Shown here in pieces: positions 8,340-42,938 of a stretch of DNA of 42,938 nt. Numbering within the stretch: the first letter of the stretch is position 1; every line of letters starts with the position of its first letter. The DNA lies in IMG/VR virus record IMGVR_UViG_2541047938_000003, positions 1-42,938 of that record; one strand, given 5' to 3'. The notes below the pieces were generated by a model. That model was not told the origin of the DNA. It searched no databases and saw only the letters and a list, made by a program, of their open reading frames with translations. Source of the stretch: a virus. Lineage: Duplodnaviria > Heunggongvirae > Uroviricota > Caudoviricetes. Both the position numbers and the translations under genes were made by a program.

Positions 8340-8371
8340 CTCCAAATCAAACGACTCACCCGGAGACACCA

Positions 8372-8605
8372 ATGAGCACTGAACTACACCGCTGGCGCAA
8401 GGCCGCCACTACCGACGAATGGGCGCAGCTCGCAAAGTTGGCTAACACGACGCCAGGTTACCTGGACCAGATCGCCTACGGAAATCGCCGGGCATCTCCA
8501 GAAATGGCATCTGCTATCGAGAAAGGCACGAAGAATTTTCACCGCCAGGCTCCGGTCCTAAAAGAAAGCCTGGTATTCGCATCGCCGCGTGATACTGCGG
8601 CCTAA
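8372..8605 (+). CDS. Cro/YdaS-like small HTH regulator
   Basis: 77 aa, divergent from the repressor; GGAG RBS; HTH-like WAQLAKLANTTPGYLDQIAYG. Confidence 0.6.
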   Translation: MSTELHRWRKAATTDEWAQLAKLANTTPGYLDQIAYGNRRASPEMASAIEKGTKNFHRQAPVLKESLVFASPRDTAA

Positions 8606-8622
8606 CCACGAAAGGGAAAGCA

Positions 8623-9165: not shown

Positions 9166-9255
9166 TGGGAAGTTTCAAAAATGGCGAAAGCCAGTCTGCG
9201 CGAACAGAACTGGCCTTCAGATGCAAATCGTGTGCACTCATTGCAGGAGGAATAA

Positions 9256-9401
9256 TGGCAAAAAATCCACGCTATTACCATACCGCTGTACATAAAAACA
9301 TAACCCGCGACCGCTTCATCCGCTCGGTTAACCCGATTGTGGCAGAGAAGATGCGCGCCATCCTGGAAGAACTGAAACGTAAGGAGAGTGGCCGTGGGTA
9401 A
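9256..9401 (+). CDS. Small hypothetical protein
   Basis: ATG at 9256 preceded by AGGAGG; 48 aa (MAKNPRYYHTAVHKNITRDRF...). Confidence 0.3.
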
Positions 9402-10293
9402 CGTATCCAATTTAGCCGAAGCCAGAGAGGCCAGAAGGCTCCAGAAACCGCGCACGAATGACGGTAAGGGGTTTGCCTTGCTGCACCGTAAAATTATGGA
9501 TGTGCCGTTCTACAAGGACGCTGAGGCGGCTCATTTATGGGTTCACATGCTCCTGCGTGCTAATCACGAACAGACACTGGTATCTACTGATGTTGGCGAT
9601 GTGATCTGCGAGCGCGGAGAGTTCATCACCGGGCGAAACACACTGGCAATGGAAACGGGTTTGACCGCTGATCGCGTTAAATCCCTTCTCCGTAAATTCC
9701 AGAATCTGGGCATGATCACCACCAAATCGAACAACCGTTTTACTGTTCTAAAAGTGGTCAAATATGACGAATATCAGTCAAATTTTTGTCCAGCAGATGT
9801 CCAGCCAGCGTCCAGCCCAAACATAGTCGTACCAATGCCTGCGGAGGTGGAGTGTCCAGCCGATGTCCAGCCAGTGTCCACAGATAACAATATATTAAAT
9901 AACTTACTACCTAACGGTAGTAAGTATGTCGCAAATGACCAGAAACCCGCTGAAGAGAAAAAGTCTCGTTTGTCATGCGATGAAGTATGGCAATGCCTGA
10001 AAGACGAACTGCCTGAAGCACGGGGATGGAGATGCCTCACTGATGAGCGACGCAATCTGATCCGCACATTCTGGGGTAAGGCTAATAAGATTGCCCGCAA
10101 CCTGGACGGCAAGCCGATGGATATGGACGGTTTCAGAAGCTATCTGCGTTACATCGCTCAGAACTGCCGCTGGATGCTTGAAGACCGACCAGACCAGAAG
10201 TCTGGGAAGACCTGGCGCCGCATGAAATTCGATAAGTTCCTGACCGAAAAGCTCTACATCGAAGTGCGCGAGGGGGATCGTGATGACCGCTGA
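9394..10293 (+). CDS. Replication initiator (lambda O-like role) with internal iterons
   Basis: Winged-helix-like N-terminus; embedded repeats and adjacent AT-rich tract; followed by DnaB helicase. Start may be GTG 9388 or 9394. Confidence 0.6.
   Translation: MGNVSNLAEAREARRLQKPRTNDGKGFALLHRKIMDVPFYKDAEAAHLWVHMLLRANHEQTLVSTDVGDVICERGEFITGRNTLAMETGLTADRVKSLLRKFQNLGMITTKSNNRFTVLKVVKYDEYQSNFCPADVQPASSPNIVVPMPAEVECPADVQPVSTDNNILNNLLPNGSKYVANDQKPAEEKKSRLSCDEVWQCLKDELPEARGWRCLTDERRNLIRTFWGKANKIARNLDGKPMDMDGFRSYLRYIAQNCRWMLEDRPDQKSGKTWRRMKFDKFLTEKLYIEVREGDRDDR
9787..9884. repeat. Candidate origin iterons (about six copies of TGTCCAGCC-like motif) inside the initiator gene
   Basis: TGTCCAGC 9787, TGTCCAGCC 9798, CGTCCAGCC 9810, TGTCCAGCC 9853, TGTCCAGCC 9865, TGTCCACA 9877; followed by AT-rich tract and palindrome CTTACTACC-TAAC-GGTAGTAAG (9904-9925). 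Confidence 0.5.
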
Positions 10294-11716
10294 TTTCATG
10301 GCTGTACCACAAAACCTCGAAGCAGAGCAGAGCGTTATCGGTGGCCTGCTGCTGGATGATGACAACAGCGAGCGAGTCCAGAAGGTTCTGGCGATGCTCA
10401 AGCCTGAATCGTTCTACAGCCGACCTCACCAGCTGATCTTTGCCGAGATGCGCCAGATGTTCCGCGACAACAAGCCAGTCGATGGTCTGACATTGTTCGA
10501 CGCGCTCGAAGGCAAAGGGCTCGCGGAGCAGGTAGGTGGCTTTGCTTACCTGGCGGAGATCGCCAAGAACACTCCCAGCGCTGCAAACATCGTGGCATAC
10601 GCTGCGTCAGTCCGGGAAGCCGCAATGGAGCGCTACGGTATCAGCCGCCTGACCGAAGCTACTGAGCTGCTGTATTCCCGCAATGGCATGAGCGCCACGC
10701 AGAAGTACGAGGCCATTCAGGGTATTTTCACCCAGCTCGCAGACCATTCAAAAACCGGTAGTCGCCGTGGGTTGCGGTCGTTCGGCGAGGTTATGGATGA
10801 CTGGGTAGCAGATCTGGAGAAACGCTTTGACCCTTCAGGCGAACAGCGCGGCATGAGCACCGGCATCCTGTCACTCGACCGGCTGCTGGCGCCGAAAGGT
10901 CTGGTTAAAGGCTCTCTGTTCGTGATTGGCGCAAGGCCAAAGATGGGCAAGACAACCCTGTACGGTCAGATGGCGATCAACTGCGCGGTTCGTGAGAAAA
11001 AGCCAGCGCTGATGTTCAGCCTCGAAATGCCGGGCGACCAGATCCTCGAAAAACTGGTTGGTCAGAAGTCTGGAGTTAACCCGAGCATTTTTTACATGCC
11101 AGCCACGGATGACGCCGATGACCAGTACCAGGGCGATTACGACGGCGACTTTAAGAAGGCGATCGCCACCGCCGGGCGATTGAGTGAAATCGACATGCTG
11201 TACATCGACGATACTCCTGGCCTGTCACTGGCGCACATCGTTAGCGAAAGCCGCCGAATCAAGCGCGAGAAGGGCTGCGTAGGAATGATTTTGGTTGACT
11301 ACCTGACTCTGATGACCGCCGAAAAAGCCGACCGTAATGACCTTGCCTACGGGATGATCACCAAAGGGTTGAAGAACCTCGCTAAAGAGCTTGGCTGCGT
11401 CGTCGTGCTGCTGACCCAGCTCAACCGCGAACTGGAGAAGCGAGTGAATAAACGCCCGTTACCGAGCGATTCCCGCGACACAGGACAGATTGAGCAGGAC
11501 TGCGACTACTGGGTTGGTATCCACCGGGAAGGTGCTTTCGATGACAGCGTGCCGCCGGGAGAAACCGAGTTAATCCTGCGACTCAATCGCCACGGCAGTA
11601 CCGGAACGGTTTATTGCAATCAGATCAACGGGGCAATTTACGACACAGACCAGCAGGCCGCCGCCGCAGAACGACGCGGGCGTGAGCAGCAGCCGAAAAA
11701 GAAAGGGGGATTCTGA
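10283..11716 (+). CDS. dnaB: Replicative DNA helicase, DnaB family
   Basis: DnaB-type N-terminus (QNLEAEQSVIGGLLLDD), Walker A GARPKMGKTT, typical RecA-like core. Confidence 0.9.
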   Translation: MTADFMAVPQNLEAEQSVIGGLLLDDDNSERVQKVLAMLKPESFYSRPHQLIFAEMRQMFRDNKPVDGLTLFDALEGKGLAEQVGGFAYLAEIAKNTPSAANIVAYAASVREAAMERYGISRLTEATELLYSRNGMSATQKYEAIQGIFTQLADHSKTGSRRGLRSFGEVMDDWVADLEKRFDPSGEQRGMSTGILSLDRLLAPKGLVKGSLFVIGARPKMGKTTLYGQMAINCAVREKKPALMFSLEMPGDQILEKLVGQKSGVNPSIFYMPATDDADDQYQGDYDGDFKKAIATAGRLSEIDMLYIDDTPGLSLAHIVSESRRIKREKGCVGMILVDYLTLMTAEKADRNDLAYGMITKGLKNLAKELGCVVVLLTQLNRELEKRVNKRPLPSDSRDTGQIEQDCDYWVGIHREGAFDDSVPPGETELILRLNRHGSTGTVYCNQINGAIYDTDQQAAAAERRGREQQPKKKGGF

Positions 11717-12060
11717 TGACCATAACAATCCGCGGGCAGATTCTTGCAGCCCTGCGTAACAACCCGGGCCTGAACAGTGCTCGTATTGCCAGCATGATCG
11801 GCATGACCACCAAAAAGATTTCCGGCCCGTTAAGTACGTTGTTTGCAGACGGCCTGATCGAGTTCGAAGGCAAGCACGGACAGCGGCTTTATCGGCTGAC
11901 CGATTACGGCATGAAATACGCACCAGAAACAATCCCGGCTATGCCGAAGGGAAATTCGAAGCTGGTGCAGCGTACAGAGGCAAACGTGATCTGCCAGGAG
12001 TGCCGCAACAGCGCGGCGATGAGAAGGGTATTGATGGTTTGGGGGAGGGTAGGGGTATGA
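11716..12060 (+). CDS. Hypothetical winged-helix protein
   Basis: 114 aa; ILAALRNNPGLNSARIASMIGMTTKKISGPLSTLFADGLIE resembles a wHTH; stop overlaps next start (ATGA). Confidence 0.45.
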   Translation: MTITIRGQILAALRNNPGLNSARIASMIGMTTKKISGPLSTLFADGLIEFEGKHGQRLYRLTDYGMKYAPETIPAMPKGNSKLVQRTEANVICQECRNSAAMRRVLMVWGRVGV

Positions 12061-12518
12061 CAAACGTAAGTGCAGTAGAAAAAATGGCTGAATTAATGCA
12101 GCAGATGGAAGAGAACTCGCCCCGAGTTGCTGCTCTCCAGTATTGCCTGACACAGGTTGCGGAAAAAGTCGAAGAAGCAGAAAAGCGCAATGCGGAGCTT
12201 GAAGCCAGATGCGCTGCGCTGAGTGCGGAGAATTCGGGACTGAAGTCAGCGATTGACGCAACTATCGGATGGCAGCAATCAACCGATCCGGAGAATGTCG
12301 AAAGCGTTCGAATGCTGGTCGACGTTAAAACCCCGGTAACCGACGCTTTCCTGGCTGAAGTTCTGGCGCATGGGGTGGAGATGGCGGCTTGCGCTCTTGA
12401 TGACGTAAACCAGTTTAATTACGCAAACATGCTTGACGATTTAGCGCAGAAACTTCGCAAGGACTCCAACACCGCAGACCCGTTAGCCGCTGGCATCATC
12501 ACTGAGGTGGGGGATTAG
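12057..12518 (+). CDS. Hypothetical protein with coiled-coil segment
   Basis: ATG 12057 with G-rich RBS; 153 aa. Confidence 0.45.
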   Translation: MTNVSAVEKMAELMQQMEENSPRVAALQYCLTQVAEKVEEAEKRNAELEARCAALSAENSGLKSAIDATIGWQQSTDPENVESVRMLVDVKTPVTDAFLAEVLAHGVEMAACALDDVNQFNYANMLDDLAQKLRKDSNTADPLAAGIITEVGD

Positions 12519-12521
12519 GGT

Positions 12522-12749
12522 ATGGCTAAGTCACAAATGAAATTGGCTAATCGCGCATGGCGTACAGAAACAAAGGCTTTGGGCTGGCATGAAGGGCGTG
12601 GGATGAATCGCAAGCAATGGAAAACTTTCTGCCGGGAAAATGCCGCCACAACCGTAGAGTCGCAAAAATACAGCGATTGTCCTGTATTTGGCGATCAGCA
12701 AGAAGCCAGAGAAATCGTTGCCGAAGAACTTACCGAATGGACACTATAG
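12522..12749 (+). CDS. Hypothetical small protein
   Basis: 75-aa ORF in operon context. Confidence 0.4.
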   Translation: MAKSQMKLANRAWRTETKALGWHEGRGMNRKQWKTFCRENAATTVESQKYSDCPVFGDQQEAREIVAEELTEWTL

Positions 12750-12758
12750 GACTAACCC

Positions 12759-13430
12759 ATGACCAAACTAACCAAAGAACGCTTGGAAGAAATCGCAGAG
12801 CTTGCAAGAAAGGCGACGTACAAGCCATGTGCAATGCACATGACGAATTTATTGGTAGTATGCGATAGCGAAGTTATCGAGGAAATGGCCCGCCAGTTGC
12901 TTGCAAGCATGGAGCAGGAGCCTGTGTCGTACACCTGTAGTGACGCGTTAGATGATGTTTACTGTGGTAGCGCAGCCATGATGGGGCCCGCTGGCGCTGT
13001 GGGAGAAGTACCACTCTACGCAGCACCACAGTTACCGCAGCCAGCGGTGTTATCAGTGTCTGAGGGCGTGCTTAAAAGCCTCTTACCCGATGTTGAGAAG
13101 TCCGAGTTCTGGTTTGAGCATAATGGGAAAATCTTTTTTGAAGGTGTGAGGTTTAACAATGCGGTATTTGAAGCCTGCCGCGCCGCCATGCTTCAGGGTG
13201 CCGAACTTGTAAGTAATCGTGATGAGTTGCCGGATGGTTGGGTGGCTTGCAGTGAGCGGATGCCGGAGAAAGCTGATGAAGTTTTGTGTGCCAAAGAATT
13301 CGATGGTCCAGGTGATTGGCGCCAAAAGGTTGGTTATTACTTAGCGGGGAAATGGACGGTGTATAGCGCATCATGGACGCCGACCCACTGGATGCCACTG
13401 CCAGCAGCACCGCGGCAGGAGGTGAAGTGA
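12759..13430 (+). CDS. DUF551-like phage protein
   Basis: C-terminal WVACSERMPE...VLCA...GYYLAGKWTVYSASWTPTHWMPLP matches the remembered DUF551 pattern. Confidence 0.55.
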   Translation: MTKLTKERLEEIAELARKATYKPCAMHMTNLLVVCDSEVIEEMARQLLASMEQEPVSYTCSDALDDVYCGSAAMMGPAGAVGEVPLYAAPQLPQPAVLSVSEGVLKSLLPDVEKSEFWFEHNGKIFFEGVRFNNAVFEACRAAMLQGAELVSNRDELPDGWVACSERMPEKADEVLCAKEFDGPGDWRQKVGYYLAGKWTVYSASWTPTHWMPLPAAPRQEVK

Positions 13431-13467
13431 CGAACAAGATGACGAGAGTTACCATAGATATAAATCA

Positions 13468-13489
13468 AGGCCCTTAGGGGCCTTTTATT
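13468..13489 (+). terminator. Rho-independent terminator
   Basis: AGGCCC-TTAG-GGGCCT perfect 6-bp stem followed by TTTTATT. Confidence 0.65.
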
Positions 13490-13523
13490 CTATGATAAAC
13501 GGACTTTGTTTGAGAGTGACGCC

Positions 13524-13850
13524 ATGAAGCCCAAGAAGCTAAATGCTGAGCAGCAATACAAATTAGACCTTGAATTGGTCAAGAAGAAGCCTGCGAACCG
13601 GACCGAGGCAAAAGCCCATTTGGCCGCACAGTTACGGATCAGCAAGTACAAGACGCAGACCTCTTCCAAAATCCGCGTAGGCAGTTTTAAGGGGCGGAAG
13701 AAGGTACATTTCAGTAAGGCGGAACAAGCAGCCAGGGCAGCACTAAATAAAGCAAATGCCATTAGATTTTCCGAAGGGGAGGTCGAGTCCGTCGATACGG
13801 ATAGAATCTCAGAAAGTAACAAACGCTGGCGCGGGAGAACTGCTGACTAA
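13524..13850 (+). CDS. Hypothetical basic protein
   Basis: K/R-rich ~108 aa ([11 protein letters not shown]...); start could also be 13506. Confidence 0.4.
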
Positions 13851-14104
13851 TGTCTGACTGGAATATTGCTGCAAAGCCGCAGGAAGAACGCGACAAGGTC
13901 AACGTTGACCTGGCAGCCTCCGGCGTAGCCTACAAAGAGCGCCTGAACATGCCGGTTATCGCTGAGGTGGTGATGCGTGAGCAGCCCGAGCATTTGCGTG
14001 ATTACTTCCTTGAGCGTCTGAAGTTTTATCGCGAGAAGTCGATAGATTTACCAAGGGCATCCGATCCGCGGTACATGGAAATGGCTGATTCTAATAAAAA
14101 ATAA
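13850..14104 (+). CDS. Hypothetical protein
   Basis: 84-aa ORF immediately following with overlapping stop/start. Confidence 0.4.
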
Positions 14105-14155
14105 GCCCTAACGTGTTGATGACCTTATCAGACCTAAACAGGAGGTTTTTCTAAA

Positions 14156-14695
14156 GTGATTAATATCATTGTTGATTCCAATGCTTGGAATTTTTTACAT
14201 GTGAGTGGGATCTCCTTAAGCAACGAGCTTCTTAGCGATTATAACTTTCAGATAACATTAGAGGTGTCTCGTGAATTGCAGGAGTTAGTGGGCAAGGAAG
14301 GGAAGGAAGCTCTTTATGAATTCTTTGTAAGTGAGACTCAGTCGCTTGAAGAGCCCTTATGCTATTTTGGTTTTTACAATGAGTCAGTGCCTGCTGATGA
14401 ACAGCGGTTTGGTGGATTTGGTGTTGGCGGGTTCGCATCTGTTCATCAAGATGATTATTTTCAGAAAACATTCCGCCAAATAAAATCATCAAAGCGTGGT
14501 ATTTATTATGGCAATGAAGCTGACATGCTGATCGGGTCAAGAGGAATTGGGAACACTTTCATACTAACAGAAGATAATAATAAGTCAGGCCCGATGAAAG
14601 AGGCTGAGAACACTATCTTTGTTTCAAGAAAATTTCCTATGACTGTGGAGCAGTTTAAGGAATATCTTGATCTTGAAACCTCAAAAACTCTTTAG
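14156..14695 (+). CDS. AT-rich accessory protein (moron), function unknown
   Basis: GTG start preceded by AGGAGG; markedly AT-rich by eye; N-terminal IIVDSNAW plus later acidic residues loosely PIN-like (speculative). Confidence 0.5.
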   Translation: MINIIVDSNAWNFLHVSGISLSNELLSDYNFQITLEVSRELQELVGKEGKEALYEFFVSETQSLEEPLCYFGFYNESVPADEQRFGGFGVGGFASVHQDDYFQKTFRQIKSSKRGIYYGNEADMLIGSRGIGNTFILTEDNNKSGPMKEAENTIFVSRKFPMTVEQFKEYLDLETSKTL

Positions 14696-14882
14696 TTACT
14701 GCGCTTTGATTTTTCATAATCACTCCGCCATAATCATGTCATCGGAGCCTGAACAACTCCGGTGACTTCTTCGCATTTAAGGGGACTTAAATGCGACCAC
14801 AATCTGAACTCATCGCCTTGTCACAGATGCAGACATGCACCTGCGATTTTCTGCATTCTGCGGTTTCCGTCAAGGAGGCCGT

Positions 14883-15338
14883 ATGATTATCCCCAAAGAC
14901 GGCATCAAGCTACACCGTGGAAATCTTGGTGCTATCACTCAGCATCTGAAGCCACTTCTCGAAAACGGTGAGTGCTTCCGGCTCCAACTCAAAGACTGGC
15001 GCGAGAAGAGAAGCCTTTCACAAAATAGTCTGAGCCACGTTTGGTACAAGGAAATAAGCGACTACCTGATCAAGTCTGGGCGCACTGACGCAACGCCTGC
15101 ATGGGTAAAGCGAAACCTCAAAAAAACTTATCTGGGTTATGAAGAGGTTGAGTACACCGATTTCGTCACCGGAATTAAGACGATTGAATTAGAACTCCGC
15201 CACACGTCCGATCTGGACACTGGCGACATGCACCATTTCATGTGCCAGGTGGAAGGCTGGTGCGCTCAGTTTGGCCTGGTGCTCACAATCCCTCAAAGCA
15301 GCGAATTTCAGGTGCTGCGCGATAAGCAGGAGGCCTGA
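14883..15338 (+). CDS. ninB: NinB-like recombination protein
   Basis: ATG 14883 after AGGAGG; SLSQNSLSHVWYKEIS resembles lambda NinB SLDQNRKLWACLGDVS. Confidence 0.7.
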   Translation: MIIPKDGIKLHRGNLGAITQHLKPLLENGECFRLQLKDWREKRSLSQNSLSHVWYKEISDYLIKSGRTDATPAWVKRNLKKTYLGYEEVEYTDFVTGIKTIELELRHTSDLDTGDMHHFMCQVEGWCAQFGLVLTIPQSSEFQVLRDKQEA

Positions 15339-15508
15339 TGTCAACTCCACTTTCCCGCGTCATCACAAACGAAATCTTTCGCGTTCCGGCGCGCCGCAAG
15401 CCTAAGCCCGCGGTTAAGCCGTCCGATATCCCGACCCTGAAAGACTACACCGCCCGCCTGGTGGATCAGAAATGGCTGCGTCTCGCAGCGAGGAGAAAAT
15501 CAGCATGA
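15338..15508 (+). CDS. ninE: NinE-like small protein (56 aa), not in the supplied track
   Basis: Hand translation [56 protein letters not shown]; C-terminus resembles lambda NinE; ATGA overlaps on both sides. Confidence 0.55.
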
Positions 15509-16173
15509 GCATGTATCAACGAATTAATGGCGCTGACTGGCGCAATATCTTCGTCGTCGGCGATCTGCATGGGTGCTACACGCTGCTGATGAATGAGCTC
15601 GAAAAGGTTTCGTTCGACCCTGCGCGTGATTTGCTGATCTCGGTTGGTGACCTTGTTGACCGCGGCGCGGAAAACGTCGAGTGCCTGGATCTGATTACTA
15701 TGCCGTGGTTCAGGGCAGTGCGCGGTAACCATGAGCAGATGATGGTTGATGGGCTTTCAGAGCATGGAAACGTCAATCACTGGCTGGTAAACGGTGGCGG
15801 TTGGTTCTTCAATCTCGACTATGACAAAGAGGTGCTGGCTAAGGCTCTGGTTCACAAGGCAGCTGAGTTACCACTCATCATCGAGCTGGTTACCTCCGAT
15901 CGGAAAATCGTAATTTGCCACGCTGACTACCCGCATAACGAATATGCGTTCGACAAGCCGGTCCCGAAAGACATGGTCATCTGGAATCGTGAGCGGGTTA
16001 GCGACGCTCAGGGCGGCATTGTCTCGCCGATAGCCGGTGCTGATCTGTTTATCTTCGGCCACACCCCTGCGCGCCAGCCCCTGAAGTATGCCAACCAGAT
16101 GTACATCGACACAGGAGCGGTGTTTTGCGGAAACCTCACGCTGGTTCAGGTGCAAGGTGGTGACCATGAGTAA
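15505..16173 (+). CDS. ninI: Ser/Thr protein phosphatase, lambda NinI-like
   Basis: Near-identical blocks to lambda NinI from memory: [84 protein letters not shown]. Confidence 0.9.
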
Positions 16174-16450
16174 AACCTACCGCAGCAAGAAGTGGCTCGC
16201 CGCAGTCGGCCAGATTGAGCAATGCGTCCTTTGCGGAGCGTGGGGCGTACAGGTAGCACACCGCAATGAAGGTAAGGGAATTGGCATGAAGACAGACGAC
16301 TGCGCCACCGCCGCTATCTGTGTCACCTGCCATTCAGAGATTGATAACGGGAAGGGGCTTAGCCGTGACGAGCGCCGCCAGTTAATGGATCGCGCCATCG
16401 TCCTGACCATTATTCAGATTGCCCGTCGTGGCTTGGTGGTGCCTGCATGA
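16166..16450 (+). CDS. YbcO-like (DUF1364) putative nuclease
   Basis: Start MSKTYRSKK...; Cys/His pattern CVLCGAW...VAH...CVTCHSEID resembles DLP12 YbcO. Confidence 0.55.
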
Positions 16451-16806
16451 AAATCTACGACATCACACCAATCGGCAAGCCTCGCATGACCCGCGCGGAT
16501 AAGTGGAAGCAGCGTCCACCTGTAATGCGTTACCGCGCTTTTTGCGATGAGGTCCGCCTGCGCAAGTTGACCATGCCTGAATCCGGATCACATGTGACAT
16601 TCGTCCTACCAATGCCACCAAGCTGGAGTAAGAAGAAACGAGCGGAGTTCGCCGGGAAGCCCCACCAGGCCAAGCCAGACTGCGACAACATGCTGAAAGC
16701 CCTGATGGATGCGCTTTATGAGGATGATGCTCACATCTGGGATTGCCGCATCACAAAGGTCTGGGGAGAGAAGGGGCAGATCATTATCGGGGAGTGCGCA
16801 CCGTGA
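16447..16806 (+). CDS. rusA: RusA-family Holliday junction resolvase
   Basis: KPDCDNMLKALMDALYEDD motif characteristic of RusA; nin-region position. Confidence 0.8.
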   Translation: MKIYDITPIGKPRMTRADKWKQRPPVMRYRAFCDEVRLRKLTMPESGSHVTFVLPMPPSWSKKKRAEFAGKPHQAKPDCDNMLKALMDALYEDDAHIWDCRITKVWGEKGQIIIGECAP

Positions 16807-16915
16807 CCAGAGACGAGATAACCCGATATCAGGCCGAAAGCGTTAAGCGCGCCAACCTGCCGCCAATAGCAAAGCACAGCCAGACCAAAACCAACCAGCC
16901 ACAGAAGGAAGCCGC

Positions 16916-17605
16916 ATGAACAGTCAGCAACTGGAATACGTACGTCAGCAGCTCATTGTGGCGACCGCAGACCTCAGCGGGGCGACGAAAGGGCAGCTGG
17001 TCGCTTTCGCCGAGAACGCTCAATTCACCGCGACGGCGCGCAGCCGGGGGCGGAAGAAAGTCTATGACGCGCAGAAAAAGCGCATGGTTAACCCCGACGG
17101 CCCGCCGATGAGCGGCAGTCAGTCACGCGCCAAGGGCTCGTCAATCGCGCTGGTGAGTCCGGTAGAGTTCGGCACCGCATCATGGCGCCGCGCTGTCCTG
17201 TCTCTGGAAGACCATCAGAGAGCATGGTTGCTCTGGACCTACAGCGACAATATCTGCTGGGAGCTCCAGGAGACGATTGTCCGCTGGGCGTGGGAGCAAT
17301 TCAACCAACAATTTGCAGGTGTGCGCATTGCAAAGAAAACGGTAGATCGCCTGCGTCAGCTCATCTGGCTGGCGGCTCAGAATGAAAAAGCAGATATTTC
17401 AGGCAGGGAAGGCTGCTTACGTTATGCGCCAGCTTCTATGATCGGAATTAAACCCGATAACTGGAGCCATAACTATTCTGGCTACTGGCGGGCTATGGGG
17501 GAAATTTTCCAAGGATTGGACAGACAAGCTTTGCTGACGGTTTCTCGATCACGTTCACAACAAAAAACGACTTTTTCGCGGCATGGTATTGCAAAAGTCA
17601 ATTAA
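16916..17605 (+). CDS. Putative late-gene antiterminator (Q-like)
   Basis: 229 aa, last gene before terminator/tRNA/lysis region; family resemblance is memory-based and weak. Confidence 0.5.
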   Translation: MNSQQLEYVRQQLIVATADLSGATKGQLVAFAENAQFTATARSRGRKKVYDAQKKRMVNPDGPPMSGSQSRAKGSSIALVSPVEFGTASWRRAVLSLEDHQRAWLLWTYSDNICWELQETIVRWAWEQFNQQFAGVRIAKKTVDRLRQLIWLAAQNEKADISGREGCLRYAPASMIGIKPDNWSHNYSGYWRAMGEIFQGLDRQALLTVSRSRSQQKTTFSRHGIAKVN

Positions 17606-35641: not shown

Positions 35642-36585
35642 TGGATACTTTTTACCGTGATTATCGGCTGACGGTGGGGATCGGCAATCAAGCAGTGATT
35701 ATCGAGCCACCGATCACCGTGTCATTCAAGGCGCTGGAAACTGTGGACAAGAAGTCACTCGGCAAGCTGAGTGTGTCCATCAACGGGCTAAAGCCTTCCA
35801 CGCGTCTGCAATTGCTCAAGTCCGAAGATGAAGAGAAGTATATCCCCGTTCGACTCGAGGTTGGTTACGACGGCAAGCTGCGCCAGGTATTTCAGGGTTC
35901 GGTTAAAAGCGGAGCAGTAAAGCGTGAGGGGGCGATCCACATCGTCAGCCTGGAATGTGAAGACGGTGGCCACGACTATATCAACGCCTTCACATCGCGC
36001 ACGGTACGCGGGAAAGATCAGGTCGTCGATTCTGTCTTGCAGGATATGCCAAACACGAAAAAAGGCTCTGTGACGAAGCAACAAGCACTCATCAGGCCGA
36101 AGGTTCTGGTAGGTAGCTCCAGTAAAATTCTTACCGATACCCTTGCGCCCGACGAGTCATTTTTCATCAAAGATGAGCGCGTCCACATCCTCAAGGCTAA
36201 TGAGGTTACATCGGGTAACATTCCAGTCGTGAATGCGCGTAGCGGCCTGCTAAATACGCCTCAGGCTACGAAGATTAGCGCGCAGGATGACGGCGGGAAA
36301 AAGGCCAAAAAGCCGACCAATGAGCCTGATACGGATCCGGCAGGCAAAAAAGATACTGACTCGAGTACCTTAGCCAAATCCTCGAAAGGGCAGATCGTAT
36401 TCGATACGAAACTGAATCCTATGCTGGTGATCGGTGGGCTTTGCGCTGTTGAAAGCGTGACGAACCCCGCGTTAAACGGGGTTTATAAGATATACCAGAT
36501 TGAAACCAGCGGGCAGAACAACGGGGCAGCCTGGTATCAGAAGGTGGTATGCCAGCCTGCCGGAAATTACTCAGTTGTTAACTGA
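35638..36585 (+). CDS. Baseplate hub-like protein (putative)
   Basis: 315 aa; position between tape measure and spike/baseplate genes. Confidence 0.45.
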   Translation: MMDTFYRDYRLTVGIGNQAVIIEPPITVSFKALETVDKKSLGKLSVSINGLKPSTRLQLLKSEDEEKYIPVRLEVGYDGKLRQVFQGSVKSGAVKREGAIHIVSLECEDGGHDYINAFTSRTVRGKDQVVDSVLQDMPNTKKGSVTKQQALIRPKVLVGSSSKILTDTLAPDESFFIKDERVHILKANEVTSGNIPVVNARSGLLNTPQATKISAQDDGGKKAKKPTNEPDTDPAGKKDTDSSTLAKSSKGQIVFDTKLNPMLVIGGLCAVESVTNPALNGVYKIYQIETSGQNNGAAWYQKVVCQPAGNYSVVN

Positions 36586-37104
36586 AGATTTTACTTCTTG
36601 CGTTACGCTGGAATTGGTTTTTTCTGGTGGGTGACGATCTGAAAGCCAGCCAAGAGCAAAAATAATGACTGTGAGAATAAAAATTTTCTCGCCTATTGAA
36701 AACTTCACCTTACCACCTGCATTTTTAAATGCCGTTTTCTCCTCGGTTGATAGTTTTCTAAATTGCTTATGGGTTAATACCATGACCAATGGGCGAGGTG
36801 GTTGAATATCTTCCTGACCATCCTCTAACAACGTTGAGTCCGAAAAGAAACCAAGCCGCTCAGGTGCTTGTTCCTCTACGTTCTCAGCGTGTTTACCGGT
36901 GGAGTTCTTTTGACCCGCGAGCAAGTTTCCACTCGTGTAAGACAAACCGGTACCGGGAATGCCTGCGGTTGCCTTTACCCCTTTTTTACCAACGTTCAGG
37001 GTAGCACCAGCCTTACCAATTGATGCGCTAGTAATGCCTGTTTTACCTATGTTTATATGAATGCCTGGTGCAATTTTGATGCGCTGTCTGAATTTGAATC
37101 CCAT
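36571..37104 (-). CDS. Reverse-strand accessory gene: DUF4236-like N-terminus with C-terminal TM helix
   Basis: MGFKFRQRIKIAPGIHINIGKTGITSASIGKAG...GIPGTGLSY matches the remembered DUF4236 pattern; hydrophobic IFILTVIIFALGWL; strong RBS AAGGAGAG; AT-rich; opposite strand to all flanking tail genes. Confidence 0.6.
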   Translation of the reverse strand: MGFKFRQRIKIAPGIHINIGKTGITSASIGKAGATLNVGKKGVKATAGIPGTGLSYTSGNLLAGQKNSTGKHAENVEEQAPERLGFFSDSTLLEDGQEDIQPPRPLVMVLTHKQFRKLSTEEKTAFKNAGGKVKFSIGEKIFILTVIIFALGWLSDRHPPEKTNSSVTQEVKSSVNN

Positions 37105-37219
37105 GAGTGACTCTCCTTAGTATTAAACGCTGGCGCAGGTTCGCTCTACGGCGATTAGTATGAGTATTTATCTAGCCATCCATTGAACCCACTCTGGCGG
37201 TTTTTTATGGGCTTAATTT

Positions 37220-37837
37220 ATGATCGAAGAACTTCACGACACTATCGGCCTGGGTGTTGAATTTGCTCTGGCCGATGTTCACACCATTGTTGTCGCAAAA
37301 ATAACGTCTGTAAATGACAAAACAATCAGTTGCGTCCCCGTTATCAATCGGGTTGTGAAAGGGAGCAGCAAGCAACTCCCAGAGTTCATTGAAGTCCCCC
37401 CGGTAATTTTGCAAGGCGGTGATAGTTATATCGCCGAACCAATTGCGGCTGGTGACTATTGCCTCGTCCTTATCTCTGAGCGTTGTTATGACGCTTGGTA
37501 TGCGGGTAGCGACTTTGTTTCACCACTTGAAATGCGTATGCACGATTATTCAGATGGCTTCGCTCTGTGTGGGGTTAACCCACAGGCTACCGCGATCAAT
37601 ATCCCTAAGAAGAACAGGATGATGAAGGGGGATTCTGACCACGAGGGTGATTTAAACCTCACAGGAAATATTACCCAGAAAGATGGTAAGACGACTCTGG
37701 AAGAATGCGATGTTCTGAATGTACTTCAATATTCCCAGGTAAAGACAGGCGGTAAGTCTGGGGTGTCTGGTTCATTTCGAAGCGATGACGGGAAAACAAT
37801 CACAGTTACCAACGGTATTGTCACGGAGATCTCATGA
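37220..37837 (+). CDS. Baseplate spike/gpV-like protein (putative)
   Basis: 205 aa at the start of the baseplate gene block. Confidence 0.45.
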   Translation: MIEELHDTIGLGVEFALADVHTIVVAKITSVNDKTISCVPVINRVVKGSSKQLPEFIEVPPVILQGGDSYIAEPIAAGDYCLVLISERCYDAWYAGSDFVSPLEMRMHDYSDGFALCGVNPQATAINIPKKNRMMKGDSDHEGDLNLTGNITQKDGKTTLEECDVLNVLQYSQVKTGGKSGVSGSFRSDDGKTITVTNGIVTEIS

Positions 37838-38214
37838 TTGTTTCAGCACTTGATAAAAATGACGACTGGGGATTTGGGCGCGGGAAGGCAAACTATATAA
37901 CTGGCGGTGCTGCTATCGCGCAGAAAGCCAAATGCCGGATCCGCTCGTTCAAAAACGATAATCCTCTCCACATGGATGACAACATCGACTGGCTTTACCT
38001 GTTATCAGAGAAAAACACCGAGCAGGAGATTCTGCGGGAGATAGAGCGCGTGACGCTGGCGACGGATGGGGTTATGCGCATTACCGCTCTGGCGATGGAG
38101 GTCAATAAGGCCACCCGGTCACAAAAAATCGAACTCAGCATTGAGACCGTCTATGACCAGCAGACGATCACCTTCCCGGTCAACGGAGCGTTGAAGAATG
38201 GCACTACAGTTTAG
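37834..38214 (+). CDS. Baseplate protein (gpW/gp25-like, putative)
   Basis: 126 aa immediately upstream of the J-like gene. Confidence 0.4.
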   Translation: MIVSALDKNDDWGFGRGKANYITGGAAIAQKAKCRIRSFKNDNPLHMDDNIDWLYLLSEKNTEQEILREIERVTLATDGVMRITALAMEVNKATRSQKIELSIETVYDQQTITFPVNGALKNGTTV

Positions 38215-39379
38215 CGACAACGGCCTTGAGACAAGCACTCTCCGGGAGTTATTTCAGGAACTGAGCGACGGATATAAGGGAATTTATGGTCAGGATATCG
38301 ATTTAGACCAGGAATCTCCCGACGGTCAACGCGTGGCAATCGAAGCTCAGGCTCGGGCAGATATTGAAGCCGCGCTGCAATGGCTTTATTCCCAAATGGA
38401 CCCCGATTTTAATACTGGTGATATGCAGCAGATTATCGCCAAACTTCACGGGCTTTTCCTTCGCCCCGGCTCCCGGTCTCAGCGTGACCTTAAAGTCACA
38501 ACAGACAGGCCGGTGCTTCTCTATAGCGGGTACAAGATACGGGACCAGGCAAATCAGGTCTGGGCTATCCGACAGGACGTGACCGTTCCGGCGGGCGTCA
38601 CAACAGCCACCTTTTTTGCTCAAAACTTTGGGAAAGTTACTGGGCTTGTGAATGACACCTTCACTCAACTCACACCAGAACCAGGGATTGTGAGCATTAT
38701 CTCTGATTCCGCGGTTGTGGTCGGTCGGGATGAGGAAACGCCTGAAGAATTCAGGCAACGCCGGAACCGGTCGCTTGAGAACCCGGCAACAGGTAGCACT
38801 GGGGCGGTTTTCGCTAAAGTTGCTCAACTGACAGGTGTAATTGATCTGAATATCGGAGAGAACGACACAAAAATTGATAATCCGACGACGGGTATCCCGG
38901 CCAATTCAATATGGCTGGTCGTTGAGGGGGGAGCGATTTCAGAAATTGTGGAGGTGATGGTTAAACAGAAAGGCGGTGGAACGGGAACGAAAGGCAGCAT
39001 AACCGGACGTTTTACCGAGACCCTGATTCGGCCTGACGGCACTTCATTTCTGATAGCCCATGAACTTCAGTTTGATCGGCCCATCTATAAGCCGCTTCAT
39101 ATCAGGCTTAATGCCCGCCGGAAGATTCAAAGCGAACCGATAGATATCGATACTCTCAAAAAATCTCTTGCATCACGCACCATGCATATTGGTGAGTCTG
39201 TGGATGCCAATGAATTTTATGAGAATGGGTATGGGGTAGGACGGGTAAATTTTGTGCTGACCAATCTGCAAATTAGCAGTAATGGGGCAGATTACACCGA
39301 TGCTGAGTTATCGCCAGGCTTTCAGGGAAAGTTCACGTTGAGTGTGGAAAATATAGACGTTAACGAGGTGGTCCAGTGA
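38198..39379 (+). CDS. Baseplate J-like protein
   Basis: 393 aa; size and order (W-J-I-fibre) typical of contractile-tail baseplates. Confidence 0.55.
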   Translation: MALQFSDNGLETSTLRELFQELSDGYKGIYGQDIDLDQESPDGQRVAIEAQARADIEAALQWLYSQMDPDFNTGDMQQIIAKLHGLFLRPGSRSQRDLKVTTDRPVLLYSGYKIRDQANQVWAIRQDVTVPAGVTTATFFAQNFGKVTGLVNDTFTQLTPEPGIVSIISDSAVVVGRDEETPEEFRQRRNRSLENPATGSTGAVFAKVAQLTGVIDLNIGENDTKIDNPTTGIPANSIWLVVEGGAISEIVEVMVKQKGGGTGTKGSITGRFTETLIRPDGTSFLIAHELQFDRPIYKPLHIRLNARRKIQSEPIDIDTLKKSLASRTMHIGESVDANEFYENGYGVGRVNFVLTNLQISSNGADYTDAELSPGFQGKFTLSVENIDVNEVVQ

Positions 39380-40098
39380 ATGACGACATCATTAACCGCT
39401 ACACGCTAATGCTCATCAAACAATATTGGGAAAAGAAAAAAGCAAGATCAGAGATACAGGCCATGCTCAGGCACTGGCAAATCATCGCCGATTTTATTCG
39501 TAACCCAGATAACTTTGATCTCGACCGGGTTACCGGATACCGGCTTGATGTCATTGGCCGGATAGTCGGCCTTCACCGTAGTGTGCCTGCTGTTATTGCC
39601 CGTGTATTTTTCGGGTTTGACGGACATCTGAATACCGCAGGCTTCGACAGTAAATCTAATGCGGCGTATGTCGGCGCACCTTTCTACAGCAAGTTTTCGC
39701 CGGCATATGGTGACTATCAACTGGCTGACAATGAGTATCGCAGGTTCCTTCGGGTCAAAATTGCGCGAAACGCCGCAGGTGCAACGATAGCGTCAGACGA
39801 TCGGGTCAGCCTGCAGGATGTTATACAGACGGCTTTCAACGGCGAAGCTTACGTGACCGACAGAAAAGACATGACGCTTGCTTTGAACGTTTCGCCGCGG
39901 GTATCAGTTGAAGAGTTACGCCTGATTGTGAAGCTTGGCCTGCTGCCGAAACCTGCGGGCGTTCGATACGATTATTTTTATCAGGTGACTCCTGGTCTGA
40001 CATTCGGTTTCTCGCGAAACCCTTCGGCCAGAGGATTCGCCAGCAAGTTTAATACCGCCTACCAGGGCGGTTTTTTTTCGAGGAAAATCCATGTCTAA
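39376..40098 (+). CDS. Baseplate/tail protein I-like (putative)
   Basis: 240 aa between J-like and tail-fibre genes. Confidence 0.45.
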   Translation: MNDDIINRYTLMLIKQYWEKKKARSEIQAMLRHWQIIADFIRNPDNFDLDRVTGYRLDVIGRIVGLHRSVPAVIARVFFGFDGHLNTAGFDSKSNAAYVGAPFYSKFSPAYGDYQLADNEYRRFLRVKIARNAAGATIASDDRVSLQDVIQTAFNGEAYVTDRKDMTLALNVSPRVSVEELRLIVKLGLLPKPAGVRYDYFYQVTPGLTFGFSRNPSARGFASKFNTAYQGGFFSRKIHV

Positions 40099-40981
40099 GA
40101 TTGTACGATATCAGGGAGATGTTCGGGCTTTTGCCTCTGATGCACAGGGAATGGAAAGAACCGTGTTTGGTGGAACAAATCAGGCGGATGACCTGACCTC
40201 GCAAATTACGGCATCTTTCCTTCGCGGATGGGGCATTGTTGGCGCTTCCGAACACCCCTCGCTTGAGGACTTCAATGCGGCAATGTATGCAATGAGTCAG
40301 TTCATTGCGTATCAGCACCAAATGGGGGTTCCAGAGTGGCATGCAGAACAGGAATATCATATCGGTTCGATCTGCACACATAACGGTGAATCTTATCAGT
40401 CCTTACAAAATGCAAATATTGGTAGCCAGCCGCCATCAGCAAAATGGACTCCTGTATTAACGTCAAAAAACGGTCTCGCAAACCTTGGTTTGGGAGAAGG
40501 CTCAGCGTTACCCGTTGGTGTACCTGTACCATATCCACTGGCTACACCACCAACAGGATGGATGAAGTGCAACGGTTCATCTTTCAATAAAACGTTACTA
40601 CCTGCGTTGGCTGCTGTTTATCCATCCGGCGTCCTTCCAGACCTGCGGGGTGAATTCATTCGTGGTTGGGATGATGGGCGAGGTGTAGATAGCGGGCGCA
40701 AGCTAATGAGCGCCCAGGAAGATGCCATAAGAAATATCTCCGGAACAGTTCGCATAGTATCCAACTCATATAATCAAAACACAGCAAGGCAAATGACTGG
40801 GGTATTTGGATGGAGTGAGTCATCGGCTGGAGATACCACTAATTTTGTACTTACAGCCGCATCAAACACATCCGGGTATAAAAATGGTGGGTTTACATTT
40901 GATGCTTCATCACAGGTTCCAACGGCCCTGGAGAATCGACCGAGAAACATTGCGTTTAACTACATTGTGAGGACCGCATAA
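40091..40981 (+). CDS. Tail fibre protein (constant N-terminal part plus current-orientation variable C-terminus)
   Basis: Crossover repeat lies inside the ORF near codon 130 (GLANLGLGEG); followed by a tail-fibre assembly gene. Confidence 0.7.
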   Translation: MSKIVRYQGDVRAFASDAQGMERTVFGGTNQADDLTSQITASFLRGWGIVGASEHPSLEDFNAAMYAMSQFIAYQHQMGVPEWHAEQEYHIGSICTHNGESYQSLQNANIGSQPPSAKWTPVLTSKNGLANLGLGEGSALPVGVPVPYPLATPPTGWMKCNGSSFNKTLLPALAAVYPSGVLPDLRGEFIRGWDDGRGVDSGRKLMSAQEDAIRNISGTVRIVSNSYNQNTARQMTGVFGWSESSAGDTTNFVLTAASNTSGYKNGGFTFDASSQVPTALENRPRNIAFNYIVRTA

Positions 40982-41584
40982 ATGGAACAGGTGATTTTAG
41001 ACGAAAACGGATATGCAACAACAGATGGTCAGATAACGGTCTACAACTATGATGGAGAAACGCGCGAATACATGACGTTATCAGTTGAGTATCTTGTTGC
41101 TGGTTTTGGTATCCCTGCGCATTCCAGCACTGATGCACCGGGTGAGCACAAGGACGGTTTTGCAATCTGCCGCAATGCAGATTCAACCGGGTGGGAATAT
41201 GTTGCAGACCATCGCGGTGAAATCATCTATAGCACCGAAACAGGAGAATCGAAAGAAATCACAGCTCTGGGTGATTACCCTGAAAATACAACCACTATCG
41301 CCCCGTTAACGCCATATGATAAATGGGATGGTGAGAAATGGGTGACGGATACTGAGGCACAGCATAGCGCCGCAGTAGAAGCGGCAGAAGCACAGCGCCA
41401 GTCACTGATTGATGCAGCAATGGCTTCCATCAGTCTGATTCAACTGAAATTACAGGCCGGACGGAAGCTGACGCAGGCAGAAACAACCAGGCTTAACGCT
41501 GTGCTGGATTACATTGACGCGGTGACGGCAACAGATACCAGCACCGCGCCGGATGTCATCTGGCCTGAACTGCCGGAGGCGTAG
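40982..41584 (+). CDS. Tail fibre assembly protein (Tfa/U-like)
   Basis: C-terminal …LDYIDAVTATDTSTAPDVIWPELPEA typical of Tfa chaperones. Confidence 0.7.
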   Translation: MEQVILDENGYATTDGQITVYNYDGETREYMTLSVEYLVAGFGIPAHSSTDAPGEHKDGFAICRNADSTGWEYVADHRGEIIYSTETGESKEITALGDYPENTTTIAPLTPYDKWDGEKWVTDTEAQHSAAVEAAEAQRQSLIDAAMASISLIQLKLQAGRKLTQAETTRLNAVLDYIDAVTATDTSTAPDVIWPELPEA

Positions 41585-42014
41585 GCCATTCAATATCTGG
41601 CGCACTGGAGGTATCAACCAGTTCCAGTGCGTTCAGATAATCCAGCCACAAATTATATTGCGCCAGTTCCTCACCTTTCAGACGACCAATAGCCGCTTTA
41701 CCAGGCCATTGTTTACTGTTCATGTATTCGTTGGCATGGTTAATCAATAATTGCCTCTCTGATTCGGCCTGTTCAATAAGTTCCTCATGTGATGGTGGAG
41801 GTATTTCAACCCATGTAGGATTGCCATAACCGTCCGACCCTCTGATTTTTCCAGTCGGCGGGAATCCTAAAAACTGGGTTGCATCCTCCTCGCTAATATC
41901 AGTGAATGTGGCGATTTCATCTTCGCTCAATTTATAATCGGAAATTGACGCAGCAGGATAGAATAATGCATTCTTTGGATCAAATTTATACATTTCAATT
42001 ACCCCGCTATCCAT
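41556..42014 (-). CDS. Alternative tail fibre assembly protein (inverted orientation)
   Basis: C-terminal …LDYLNALELVDTSSAPDIEWPTPP parallels the + strand Tfa; convergent and overlapping its 3' end. Confidence 0.7.
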   Translation of the reverse strand: MDSGVIEMYKFDPKNALFYPAASISDYKLSEDEIATFTDISEEDATQFLGFPPTGKIRGSDGYGNPTWVEIPPPSHEELIEQAESERQLLINHANEYMNSKQWPGKAAIGRLKGEELAQYNLWLDYLNALELVDTSSAPDIEWPTPPAVQAR

Positions 42015-42337
42015 CTGTATGCGACTGGCATACTTCCAACCTGTGAAACATCAAACCCCTGCCTCGATTTTCGCAACACATTTACGGCCCCTTTATTTGC
42101 TCCGGAATCTGATGCACAAACGATAACTTCGAAATCGTCATACGGAAATGGTATCGGGAATAAAATGTTAGTTTGATTTGATGCCATAGCAAATCCCCGC
42201 TGTATTATTCTCCCCGACGGGTCTCTATTCCATCCTGTCCCAGATGTCCATTCTGACATACTAGGTATCTGATTTTCCCCTGTTCCCACATTCCGTTTTG
42301 CCGCTTCTCCCAAACCAACCTTTTTTATAACCATCAA
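41999..42337 (-). CDS. Alternative tail-fibre C-terminal variable segment (promoterless, expressed only after inversion)
   Basis: Minus-strand ORF whose 5' end is at the right crossover repeat; begins …VGLGEAAKRNVGTGENQIP, in register with GLANLGLGEG of the + strand fibre at the left repeat. Confidence 0.6.
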   Translation of the reverse strand: MMVIKKVGLGEAAKRNVGTGENQIPSMSEWTSGTGWNRDPSGRIIQRGFAMASNQTNILFPIPFPYDDFEVIVCASDSGANKGAVNVLRKSRQGFDVSQVGSMPVAYRWIAG

Positions 42338-42389
42338 AAATCTGGTGATGCTTCGCCGTTTCTCCTGTTTTCATAACAGGAGAAATCCC

Positions 42390-42938
42390 ATGATTTACGG
42401 TTATGCCCGAGTATCAACAAACCACCAGGATACTGAATTGCAACTAACGGCGCTCAAGTCAGCGGGTTGTGAGAAAATTTTTGAAGAGCATGCCAGCGGG
42501 AGGAAATCGAATCGGCCGGTTCTAAAACGGCTGATCGCCACTATGCAGCCGGGGGATGAACTGGTGGTCTGGAAGCTGGACAGGATAGGCCGCAACGTTC
42601 TGCATGCGCTGTTGATGTTCCAGCAGTTACAGGAAAAGGGTATCAACTTCCGCAGTATTACCGATGGCGTGGATCTCAAAACAGCCAGCGGCCGCTATAA
42701 CTTTCGTAACATCCTTTCCGCAGCACAATATGAATCTGATCTTAATAGCGAACGTACCTTAGCAGGGCTGGCCGTAGCCAGGGCAAAAGGGCGAGTTGGT
42801 GGTCGCAGGCCTAAGTTCACGAATGAGCAATGGCGGGAAATGGGGGAGCGGATGGCAACCGGTGAATCACGACAAAGCGTATCAAAAACGTATGGAGTAG
42901 GGCTCTCAACTCTGTATAAAAAGTTTCCAGCTAGCTGA
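42390..42938 (+). CDS. Serine DNA invertase (Hin/Gin/Cin/Pin family)
   Basis: MIYGYARVSTNHQDTELQ... catalytic Ser region; AGGAG RBS; C-terminal HTH; immediately outside the invertible segment. Confidence 0.9.
   Translation: MIYGYARVSTNHQDTELQLTALKSAGCEKIFEEHASGRKSNRPVLKRLIATMQPGDELVVWKLDRIGRNVLHALLMFQQLQEKGINFRSITDGVDLKTASGRYNFRNILSAAQYESDLNSERTLAGLAVARAKGRVGGRRPKFTNEQWREMGERMATGESRQSVSKTYGVGLSTLYKKFPAS

Follow-up and report, generated by a model that had tools for sequence, protein, structure and literature searches.

Invertible tail-fibre segments have been known since phages Mu and P1 and the cryptic prophage e14 of Escherichia coli K-12; Min of p15B belongs to the same Din type. The G segment of Mu, with its invertase Gin, and the C segment of P1, with Cin, share a common logic, i.e., a constant 5′ part of the fibre gene, two inverted arms with their chaperones, 26-bp crossover sites and an external serine invertase. 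The P segment of e14 comprises the gene pairs stfP-tfaP and tfaE-stfE, is accompanied by the invertase PinE, and was shown experimentally to invert at the repeat TTGGTTTGGGAGAAGG (PMC12529663; PMC4272514). Prophages Phi1, Phi2 and Phi4 of EC958, as well as P2-like prophages, also have 26-bp sites and collar-domain arms, and their inversion was seen as alternative contigs (PMC4134206; PMC4272514). In Phi1, switching at the 26-bp sites occurs at high frequency, ~50% of the PacBio reads being in the alternative orientation (PMC4134206), and fibre-segment switching in E. coli prophages has been quantified from whole-genome sequencing data (PMC4272514). Here, we describe a locus of this type in the virus record IMGVR_UViG_2541047938_000003 (Caudoviricetes). 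The stretch analyzed, further referred to as the window, is 42,938 nucleotides long and constitutes a whole 42.9-kb E. coli prophage with the fibre locus at its right end. With a probability of about 0.88, this locus works as a tail-fibre switch of the e14/Mu/P1 (Din) kind, which has two states and is driven by an invertase; it belongs to an apparently complete prophage whose early genes are lambdoid and whose tail is contractile. The features of the locus are listed in Table 1.

Table 1. Features of the tail-fibre locus, with positions in the window.
Feature	Position	Strand	Basis and remarks
Constant N-terminal fibre part, codons 1-131	40091-40484	+	Outside the invertible segment; part of open reading frame 40091-40981
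Left 26-bp crossover site	40473-40498	+	GTCTCGCAAACC-TT-GGTTTGGGAGAA; core TT at 40485-40486; inside the fibre reading frame
Variable arm 1, collar-domain C-terminus of the 296-aa fibre, in expressed position as found	40487-40981	+	PF07484 (Collar), E = 7.9e-13
Chaperone 1, Tfa of 200 aa, TfaE-like	40982-41584	+	PF02413 (Caudo_TAP), E = 7e-33; start abuts the fibre stop codon
Chaperone 2, Tfa of 152 aa (145 aa from ATG 41993), TfaP-like	41556-42014	-	PF02413, E = 1e-30
Variable arm 2, gp53-like C-terminus, not joined to the fibre gene as found	41999-42316	-	PF21882 (Gp53-like_C), E = 6e-8
Right 26-bp crossover site	42305-42330	+	TTCTCCCAAACC-AA-CCTTTTTTATAA; core AA at 42317-42318
Serine DNA invertase of 182 aa, PinL type	42390-42938	+	PF00239 (Resolvase), E = 3.6e-39, and PF02796 (HTH_7); gene ends with the window

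The initial annotation had likened the locus to the segments of Mu, P1 and e14 together. That architecture was borne out when the annotated sites of the three elements were extracted and the arms and chaperones were compared by BLASTP, and the e14 P segment is, by alignment, the closest homologue, much closer than Mu G or P1 C. Gene order, strands and the GLGE junction are the same in e14 and in the window; both have lambdoid early genes and an invertase gene immediately outside the segment on the same side, and the segments measure 1,797 bp in e14 and 1,834 bp, from core to core (40485-42318), in the window. The 200-aa Tfa of the window is 81.5% identical to TfaE over 200 amino acids (aa), chaperone 2 is 68% identical to TfaP over the C-terminal half, and the collar arm and StfE share 47% identity as well as the GLGE/GSALPVG junction. 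Furthermore, the repeat in the window, TTGGTTTGGGAGAAG, equals the inversion repeat of e14 at 15/16 positions. Unlike in e14, the invertase belongs to another clade, being 55% identical to PinE, and the invertase-proximal outer half-site reads AAGG instead of AACG. Neither the gp53-like arm nor the constant N-terminus of the fibre gave a match to an e14 fibre by BLASTP. Moreover, e14 is defective, whereas the prophage in the window looks complete. The segments of Mu and P1 are larger (3-4.2 kb), and no similarity of the arms and chaperones to the S/U or S′/U′ proteins of these phages was found by BLASTP at E < 1e-3; therefore, the term "Mu G-like" holds for the architecture only. The prophages of EC958 and P2-like prophages differ from the window in their fibre N-termini, baseplates and outer half-sites, the backbone in the window having a wedge-1/DUF2612 baseplate and being located at yciI-tonB.

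The locus had drawn attention by a pair of 20-bp inverted repeats (40480-40499 and 42304-42323) bracketing about 1.8 kb. This pair is present: its arms are complementary at 18/20 positions and are separated by 1,804 nt. The perfect part is 15 bp long (40485-40499 and 42304-42318), and the two mismatches, CC vs. GG, are located in the outer half-sites beside the core. By our own estimate, an 18/20 inverted repeat alone is not rare in a window of ~43 kb; the pair is significant because it matches the form of the crossover sites of e14, P1 and Mu and lies at a telling position. The left site is identical at 24/26 positions to the e14 site within stfP and has the same form as cixL of P1 and gixL of Mu. 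It is located at about codons 128-136 (ANLGLGE) of the 296-aa fibre reading frame. The right site reads TTATAAAAAAGG-TT-GGTTTGGGAGAA after reverse complementation and, thus, the two sites are inverted relative to each other. The inner 12-nt half-site and the TT core are identical at both sites and equal those of e14 at both ends, whilst the outer half-sites differ; the core is also TT in P1, and it is TC/GA in Mu. In the 42.9-kb window, the inner half-site is present in exactly two copies, which lie on opposite strands, where 0.28 copies would be expected by chance; two copies were reached in 3 of 100 shuffled sequences. A shufflon, which would have a third or a quasi site, was considered as well, but only two sites were found in a search of the window, and the locus is therefore a simple two-state switch.

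Two fibre C-terminal segments on opposite strands, each with its own Tfa-type chaperone, had been proposed, and the single matches to PF07484 and PF21882 and the two matches to PF02413 confirm them. The Collar match spans residues 143-190 of the fibre. All four reading frames, i.e., those of the two arms and the two chaperones, are intact in the window. The constant N-terminal part of the fibre, which is encoded downstream of the genes for the baseplate J protein and the wedge (DUF2612), presumably is the part that attaches to the baseplate, and it is 100% identical in six complete E. coli genomes bearing different C-terminal arms. The prediction that inversion would swap the C-terminus, as the left repeat lies inside the fibre reading frame, also held: when positions 40485-42318 are inverted in silico, codons 1-135 of the fibre gene are fused in frame, via the shared GLGE, to the minus-strand arm. 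The resulting fibre is 237 aa long, its C-terminus matches Gp53-like_C (PF21882) above the Pfam cut-off, and the gene for chaperone 2 then follows. Whether the minus-strand segment aligns to fibre C-termini was a point on which the initial annotation had staked its reading beforehand. Besides the match to PF21882, the segment is identical to the C-terminus of a 455-aa fibre of the P2 gpH type in a P2-like prophage (L008), and it is, by these alignments, a bona fide fibre C-terminus.

Two details of the chaperone region deserve mention. The chaperone genes overlap convergently by 29 nt (41556-41584), exactly as tfaP and tfaE do in e14. An additional inverted repeat, I5 (41503-41520 / 41629-41646), is found in the same region; similar C-termini (...LDYIDAV... 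and ...LDYLNAL...) are encoded here on opposite strands, and the repeat may reflect this similarity.

Natural variation between isolates was used as a test of flipping. The junctions as found are located at 40460-40520 and 42285-42345. Two inverted junctions were constructed in silico, i.e., the constant part followed by the inverted repeat and CGGCAAAACGG on the left side, and CCAACGGGTAACGCTGAGCC followed by the inverted repeat and TTTTTTATAACC on the right side, and complete E. coli genomes were searched with them. The flipped left junction is found over its entire 600 nt in strains EC17CM13 (98.8% identical) and EcE.CRE.COL (98.0%), which also contain a match to the flipped right one. Outside the segment, both genomes show 100.000% identity to the window (37000-40499 and 42304-42938), and this identity extends exactly to the repeats. 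Colinearity breaks at the left site, and positions 40898-42318 of the window align to the opposite strand of both genomes. They carry the prophage at the same yciI-tonB locus as the window lineage, with both 26-bp sites, including the unusual right one, and the invertase being 100% identical. In the annotation of EC17CM13, a 237-aa gp53-like fibre is followed by a 145-aa Tfa, whilst the other strand encodes a 200-aa Tfa and a collar fragment adjoining the recombinase. A third genome with the prophage at the same locus, L009 (GCA_025312395.1), is also flipped. Its fibre is 100% identical to the predicted 237-aa fusion, an exact copy of which is also on record in a collection of 15 billion proteins, and its expressed arm and chaperone are identical at the protein level to the silent ones of the window. 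Altogether, the N-terminus of the fibre is carried by 9 of 5,426 complete E. coli genomes; judged from annotation and junction matches, most of these nine express a gp53-like arm, whilst TUM9803 expresses a collar arm, as in the window. Thus, the inverted orientation foreseen for the locus is found between isolates, and the genome comparisons indicate that both orientations are populated in this prophage lineage.

An assembly artefact can be rejected as the source of the arrangement in the window, since the Logan assembly of SRR958752, which is independent, matches positions 37000-42938 with 100% identity. The 296-aa fibre protein is on record from E. coli UMEA 3329-1.

The invertase gene is located 59 bp outside the right crossover site, and the proposed assignment of its product to the Hin/Gin family stands: it has the Resolvase and HTH_7 domains, and its best relatives of known structure are the Gin structures 3UJ3 and 4M6F (E = 1e-56), with γδ resolvase far behind (1e-25). 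The start codon is likely ATG 42390, which gives a protein of 182 aa, and not GTG 42345. Ser9 in the motif YARVS aligns to Ser9 of Gin, and a GGRRPK arm and an LSTLYKK recognition helix are present as well. However, comparison with Gin, Cin and PinE placed the enzyme in a separate, PinL-type clade. Gin, Cin, PinE and the invertase of the P2-like prophage L008 are mutually 74-85% identical, a range outside which the enzyme of the window falls. Instead, it is 99.4% identical to PinL of φ80, 87% to the invertase of a prophage with a Mu-like baseplate (L015) and 71% to that of another P2-like prophage (L012), whilst it shares 36% identity with PinQ and PinR. The members of the PinL-type clade (window, 42390-42938; L012, 7004-7564; L015, 6409-6960; φ80, L001, 4127-4645) are 49-56% identical to Gin, Cin and PinE. 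Marked differences are found in the E-helix, where a stretch reads GRYNFRNILSAAQYESDL vs. GRFFFHVMGALAEMEREL in the classical enzymes. Thus, the enzyme appears to be Din-like by its function and site type, albeit outside the tight cluster of classical enzymes, and it is plausible that it is cognate to the cassette.

Upstream of the invertase gene, directly before the ATG, lies a perfect 12-bp hairpin (42357-42385, plus strand), the 3′ arm of which holds the Shine-Dalgarno sequence AGGAGAA. The predicted RNA fold has a stability of -25.5 kcal/mol (z = -4.2), and none of 200 shuffled sequences was as stable. Its counterpart in φ80 is annotated only as IR3. By sequestering the Shine-Dalgarno sequence, the hairpin could possibly throttle translation of the invertase.

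In the proposed mechanism, late transcription would cross the constant 5′ part of the fibre gene and go on into whichever arm is joined to it, and translation would continue into the matching chaperone. In the orientation found, a 296-aa collar-domain fibre would be produced together with the TfaE-like chaperone and, after inversion, a 237-aa gp53-like fibre together with the TfaP-like chaperone. By analogy with Gin and Hin, the invertase would attach to each 26-bp site as a dimer and, by means of Ser9, cleave the TT/AA cores with a 2-bp stagger; rotation of one pair of half-sites and religation would then turn the segment over. The product would be an inversion, given that the core lacks symmetry and that the two sites point in opposite directions. 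A population of lysogens would then release virions with two receptor specificities, a form of bet-hedging. Besides this chemistry, we infer that inversion in this strain is carried out by the adjacent invertase and that the two fibres differ in receptor; statements on switching rates and on dependence on Fis and an enhancer are of the same nature.

Several observations on the relatives, the right site and the invertase weigh against this reading. With respect to the relatives, the two orientations were seen in different isolates and not within one culture of the source strain. Furthermore, the relatives with identical flanks have an interior that is only ~90% identical to that of the window, with the collar arm partly replaced. 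Cassette replacement must therefore have occurred alongside, or conceivably instead of, in situ inversion. If it occurred instead, the genomes would differ in orientation because their entire cassettes were exchanged in recombination with other phages, in which the cassette is present in either orientation. This alternative would explain why the interior of the flipped relatives is 89.5-93.5% identical whilst their flanks are 94-100% identical, and the cassette is demonstrably mobile between phage backbones, where copies are 99.5-99.9% identical. However, replacement would itself depend on the crossover sites, as no other sequence is shared, and both inversion and replacement are to be expected in such systems, e14 and EC958 having been found to switch within cultures (PMC4272514, PMC4134206). 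Moreover, the protein identity between the expressed arm and chaperone of L009 and the silent ones of the window, mentioned above, argues against it. Replacement as the sole source of the two orientations is thus highly improbable.

The second group of observations concerns the right site and the regulatory region of the invertase gene. In its outer half, the right site has AAGG in place of the consensus AACC and thus deviates at two bases beside the core. Furthermore, the G...C 15-mer that gin, pinE and cin have in common at nt 71-85 of the gene, i.e., the distal Fis core, has lost its two ends in the window, where the sequence is CAGCGGGTTGTGAGA. This 15-mer lies within the enhancer annotated for cin (nt 19-90). 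The proximal G22...C36 is kept in the window, but it overlaps the codons for the catalytic motif. A scan of the 5′ end of the gene with a strict Fis consensus revealed no convincing pair of sites, Fis sites being degenerate, whilst conservation at third codon positions peaks at nt 1-90 in both invertase clades, which is weakly suggestive given the few sequences. In a scan of 39900-42938, promoter matches were at chance-level counts, and none was outstanding for the invertase or for the minus-strand arm.

The deviating right site and the altered Fis core would be accounted for if the switch were a locked fossil in this strain, i.e., if the architecture was inherited and inversion was stopped by the degenerate AAGG half-site or a missing enhancer. 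A precedent is found in φ80. The invertase genes of φ80 (pinL), mEp237 and HK225 are 93.5-99.5% identical in DNA to that of the window, and φ80 also has the upstream hairpin and an AAGG-TT-GGTTTGGGAGAA site; however, only a single relic site and a pseudogene fragment of a collar domain are left there, in contrast to the full two-site cassette in the window and, therefore, nothing can invert in φ80. Decay also occurs in the lineage of the window itself, as exemplified by EcE.CRE.COL. Nevertheless, a locked fossil is very unlikely, because the opposite orientation is found in genomes that agree with the window in both sites and, at 100% identity, in the invertase. In addition, the arms and chaperones in the window are all intact, and every PinL-type module has retained the AAGG variant, among them modules found in either orientation: it is also present in the relic site of φ80 and in L009, L012 and L015, always next to a PinL-type invertase. 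Indeed, the invertase-proximal site has AAGG-TT in all PinL-type modules examined and AACG-TT in the classical ones, but, as site and invertase gene are linked DNA, this need not reflect functional co-variation.

As to the decay in EcE.CRE.COL (L007, 3407-4042), its expressed gp53-like arm is frameshifted, which results in a protein of 211 aa with a scrambled C-terminus. Arms can, thus, decay even in the expressed position.

Finally, the invertase of the window, with 52-55% identity to Gin, Cin and PinE (55% to PinE and 52% to Gin and Cin), is distant from the characterized enzymes, and its role as the cognate enzyme is no more than plausible, given that trans action is known for Din invertases (PMC12529663, PMC4134206). 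The switch could be real, but another Din-type invertase, such as PinE of e14 or the enzyme of a P2-like prophage, could act on it in trans and be mainly or solely responsible for its inversion, with the adjacent PinL-type gene being weak or inactive. In favor of this, the inner half-sites and the core are identical to those of e14. PinQ, although only 38% identical to PinE, inverts the P segment of e14 (PMC12529663), and Phi4 of EC958 inverts despite a truncated invertase (PMC4134206). Furthermore, an identical cassette is paired with an invertase of the classical clade in L008 and with one of the PinL clade in the window and in L012, and a search of the open-access literature revealed no functional study of PinL-type invertases. 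On the other hand, the gene is intact and has retained the catalytic Ser9 together with GGRRPK and the LSTLYKK helix, PinL-type genes have been kept next to invertible fibre cassettes on three phage backbones, and the protein cluster to which the invertase belongs has 402 members, all of which suggests selection for function. Control exclusively or mainly in trans is, hence, unlikely, albeit that a contribution of a trans-acting invertase is plausible and does not exclude that the locus is an invertase-driven switch.

The layout at the right site has a further consequence. A 112-aa reading frame on the minus strand (41999-42337) starts at ATG 42334, just outside the right site, with the leader MVIKKV, and reads via GLGE into the invertase-side arm in either orientation, thus encoding a "headless" fibre fragment; this is the layout of stfE in e14. 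It has been reported that the chimeric StfE2 of e14 blocks the adsorption of T2 (PMC12529663). By analogy, the switch might mainly benefit the host, with the headless arm blocking receptors against superinfecting phages. The reading frame would provide such a product whichever arm is facing the leader, and a weak leftward promoter-like match is present at 42417-42390. However, promoter matches were found at chance level (6 vs. 4.3 expected), and no obvious Shine-Dalgarno sequence was noticed before ATG 42334 when the sequence was read. Besides, the prophage looks complete and, thus, a role in the host range of the virion is straightforward. That host defense would be the main benefit is quite unlikely, but the two roles are not mutually exclusive, and a tail-fibre switch acting on the virion remains the preferred reading.

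Copies of the cassette were found by exact-protein look-ups on three tail backbones. Positions 40480-42318 of the window are present in the P2-like prophages L008 (3676-5514; 99.9% identical, flipped) and L012 (4493-6342; 99.5% identical, in the orientation of the window), and in L015, the prophage with a Mu-like baseplate (4488-6951; ~94.5% identical, with a PinL-type invertase). The fibre N-termini of the P2-like prophages lack similarity to that of the window, and their invertase genes are at most ~68% identical in DNA. In every case, homology is lost a few bases from the 2-bp cores at most; hence, the inner half-sites go with the cassette, whilst the outer half-sites stay with the backbone. 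This distribution fits the horizontal exchange of fibre modules, which, according to PMC4134206, where Sandmeier (1994) is cited for it, is a long-standing idea. The crossover sites may even double as docking points, so that cassettes would be transferred between unrelated phages by an intermolecular double exchange catalyzed by the invertase, i.e., recombinase-mediated cassette exchange. The PinL-type clade, with its differing E-helix and enhancer region, might perhaps favor such exchange as compared to the Fis-gated classical enzymes. It is known, however, that wild-type Din invertases are strongly biased towards inverted sites within one molecule and, since recombination at the short homology of the sites would give the same picture, site-specific exchange of cassettes must be regarded as doubtful.

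With respect to the prophage as a whole, the proposed lambdoid character of its early region was corroborated by the identification of Int, Exo, Bet, CI, CII, O-like, DnaB and Q proteins. PHROG matches in 1-17605 revealed, in lambda order, genes for an integrase, a methyltransferase, Exo, Bet, a CI-type repressor, CII, an O-like initiator, a DnaB-type helicase and Q. The late genes encode lysis proteins, terminase, portal, major head protein, tail sheath, tape measure, baseplate hub, spike, baseplate J and wedge (DUF2612). According to these assignments, the prophage combines the lambdoid early region with a virion that has a contractile tail, and the prophage looks complete, as terminase, portal, capsid, sheath, tape-measure, baseplate and lysis genes are all represented. 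In related E. coli genomes, the prophage ends directly after the invertase gene and adjoins yciI-tonB.

Three further observations were made outside the switch. First, a gene for a 177-aa DUF4236 protein (36571-37104, minus strand) lies amid the plus-strand tail and baseplate operon and is conserved in this position in the E. coli relatives; it is a moron-like insertion. Second, the DNA methyltransferase gene (1672-2556, minus strand), which adjoins the integrase gene, is intact, whilst the stretch from int to exo in φ80 contains a frameshifted dam-like pseudogene (damL). Third, an element resembling an intrinsic terminator (40054-40071), consisting of a 7-bp stem with five G-C pairs followed by T8, lies within the wedge gene, in its 3′ end, at a distance of 20 nt from the start codon of the fibre gene that follows. 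Transcription of the fibre genes might be attenuated here, except by a Q-modified polymerase that passes through. In the scan of 39900-42938 mentioned above, which covered terminators as well as promoters, terminator-like matches occurred at chance frequency overall.

As a switch, the locus is conceptually nothing new, and switches of this kind have already been seen switching in E. coli prophages by sequencing. It is, however, a clean and fully intact example on a complete prophage that combines lambdoid early genes with a contractile tail, and its alternative state, predicted from the sequence, was confirmed residue for residue in another genome. It also holds a warning for annotation: fragments labeled "gp53-like" or "phage tail protein" beside an invertase gene are alternative fibre arms and not separate genes. 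The need of the PinL-type clade for Fis and an enhancer is a possible question for a small experiment. Finally, if crossover sites do transfer receptor-binding cassettes between P2-like phages, Mu-like phages and phages of the type described here, this would bear on the evolution of host range and on the engineering of swappable fibre modules.

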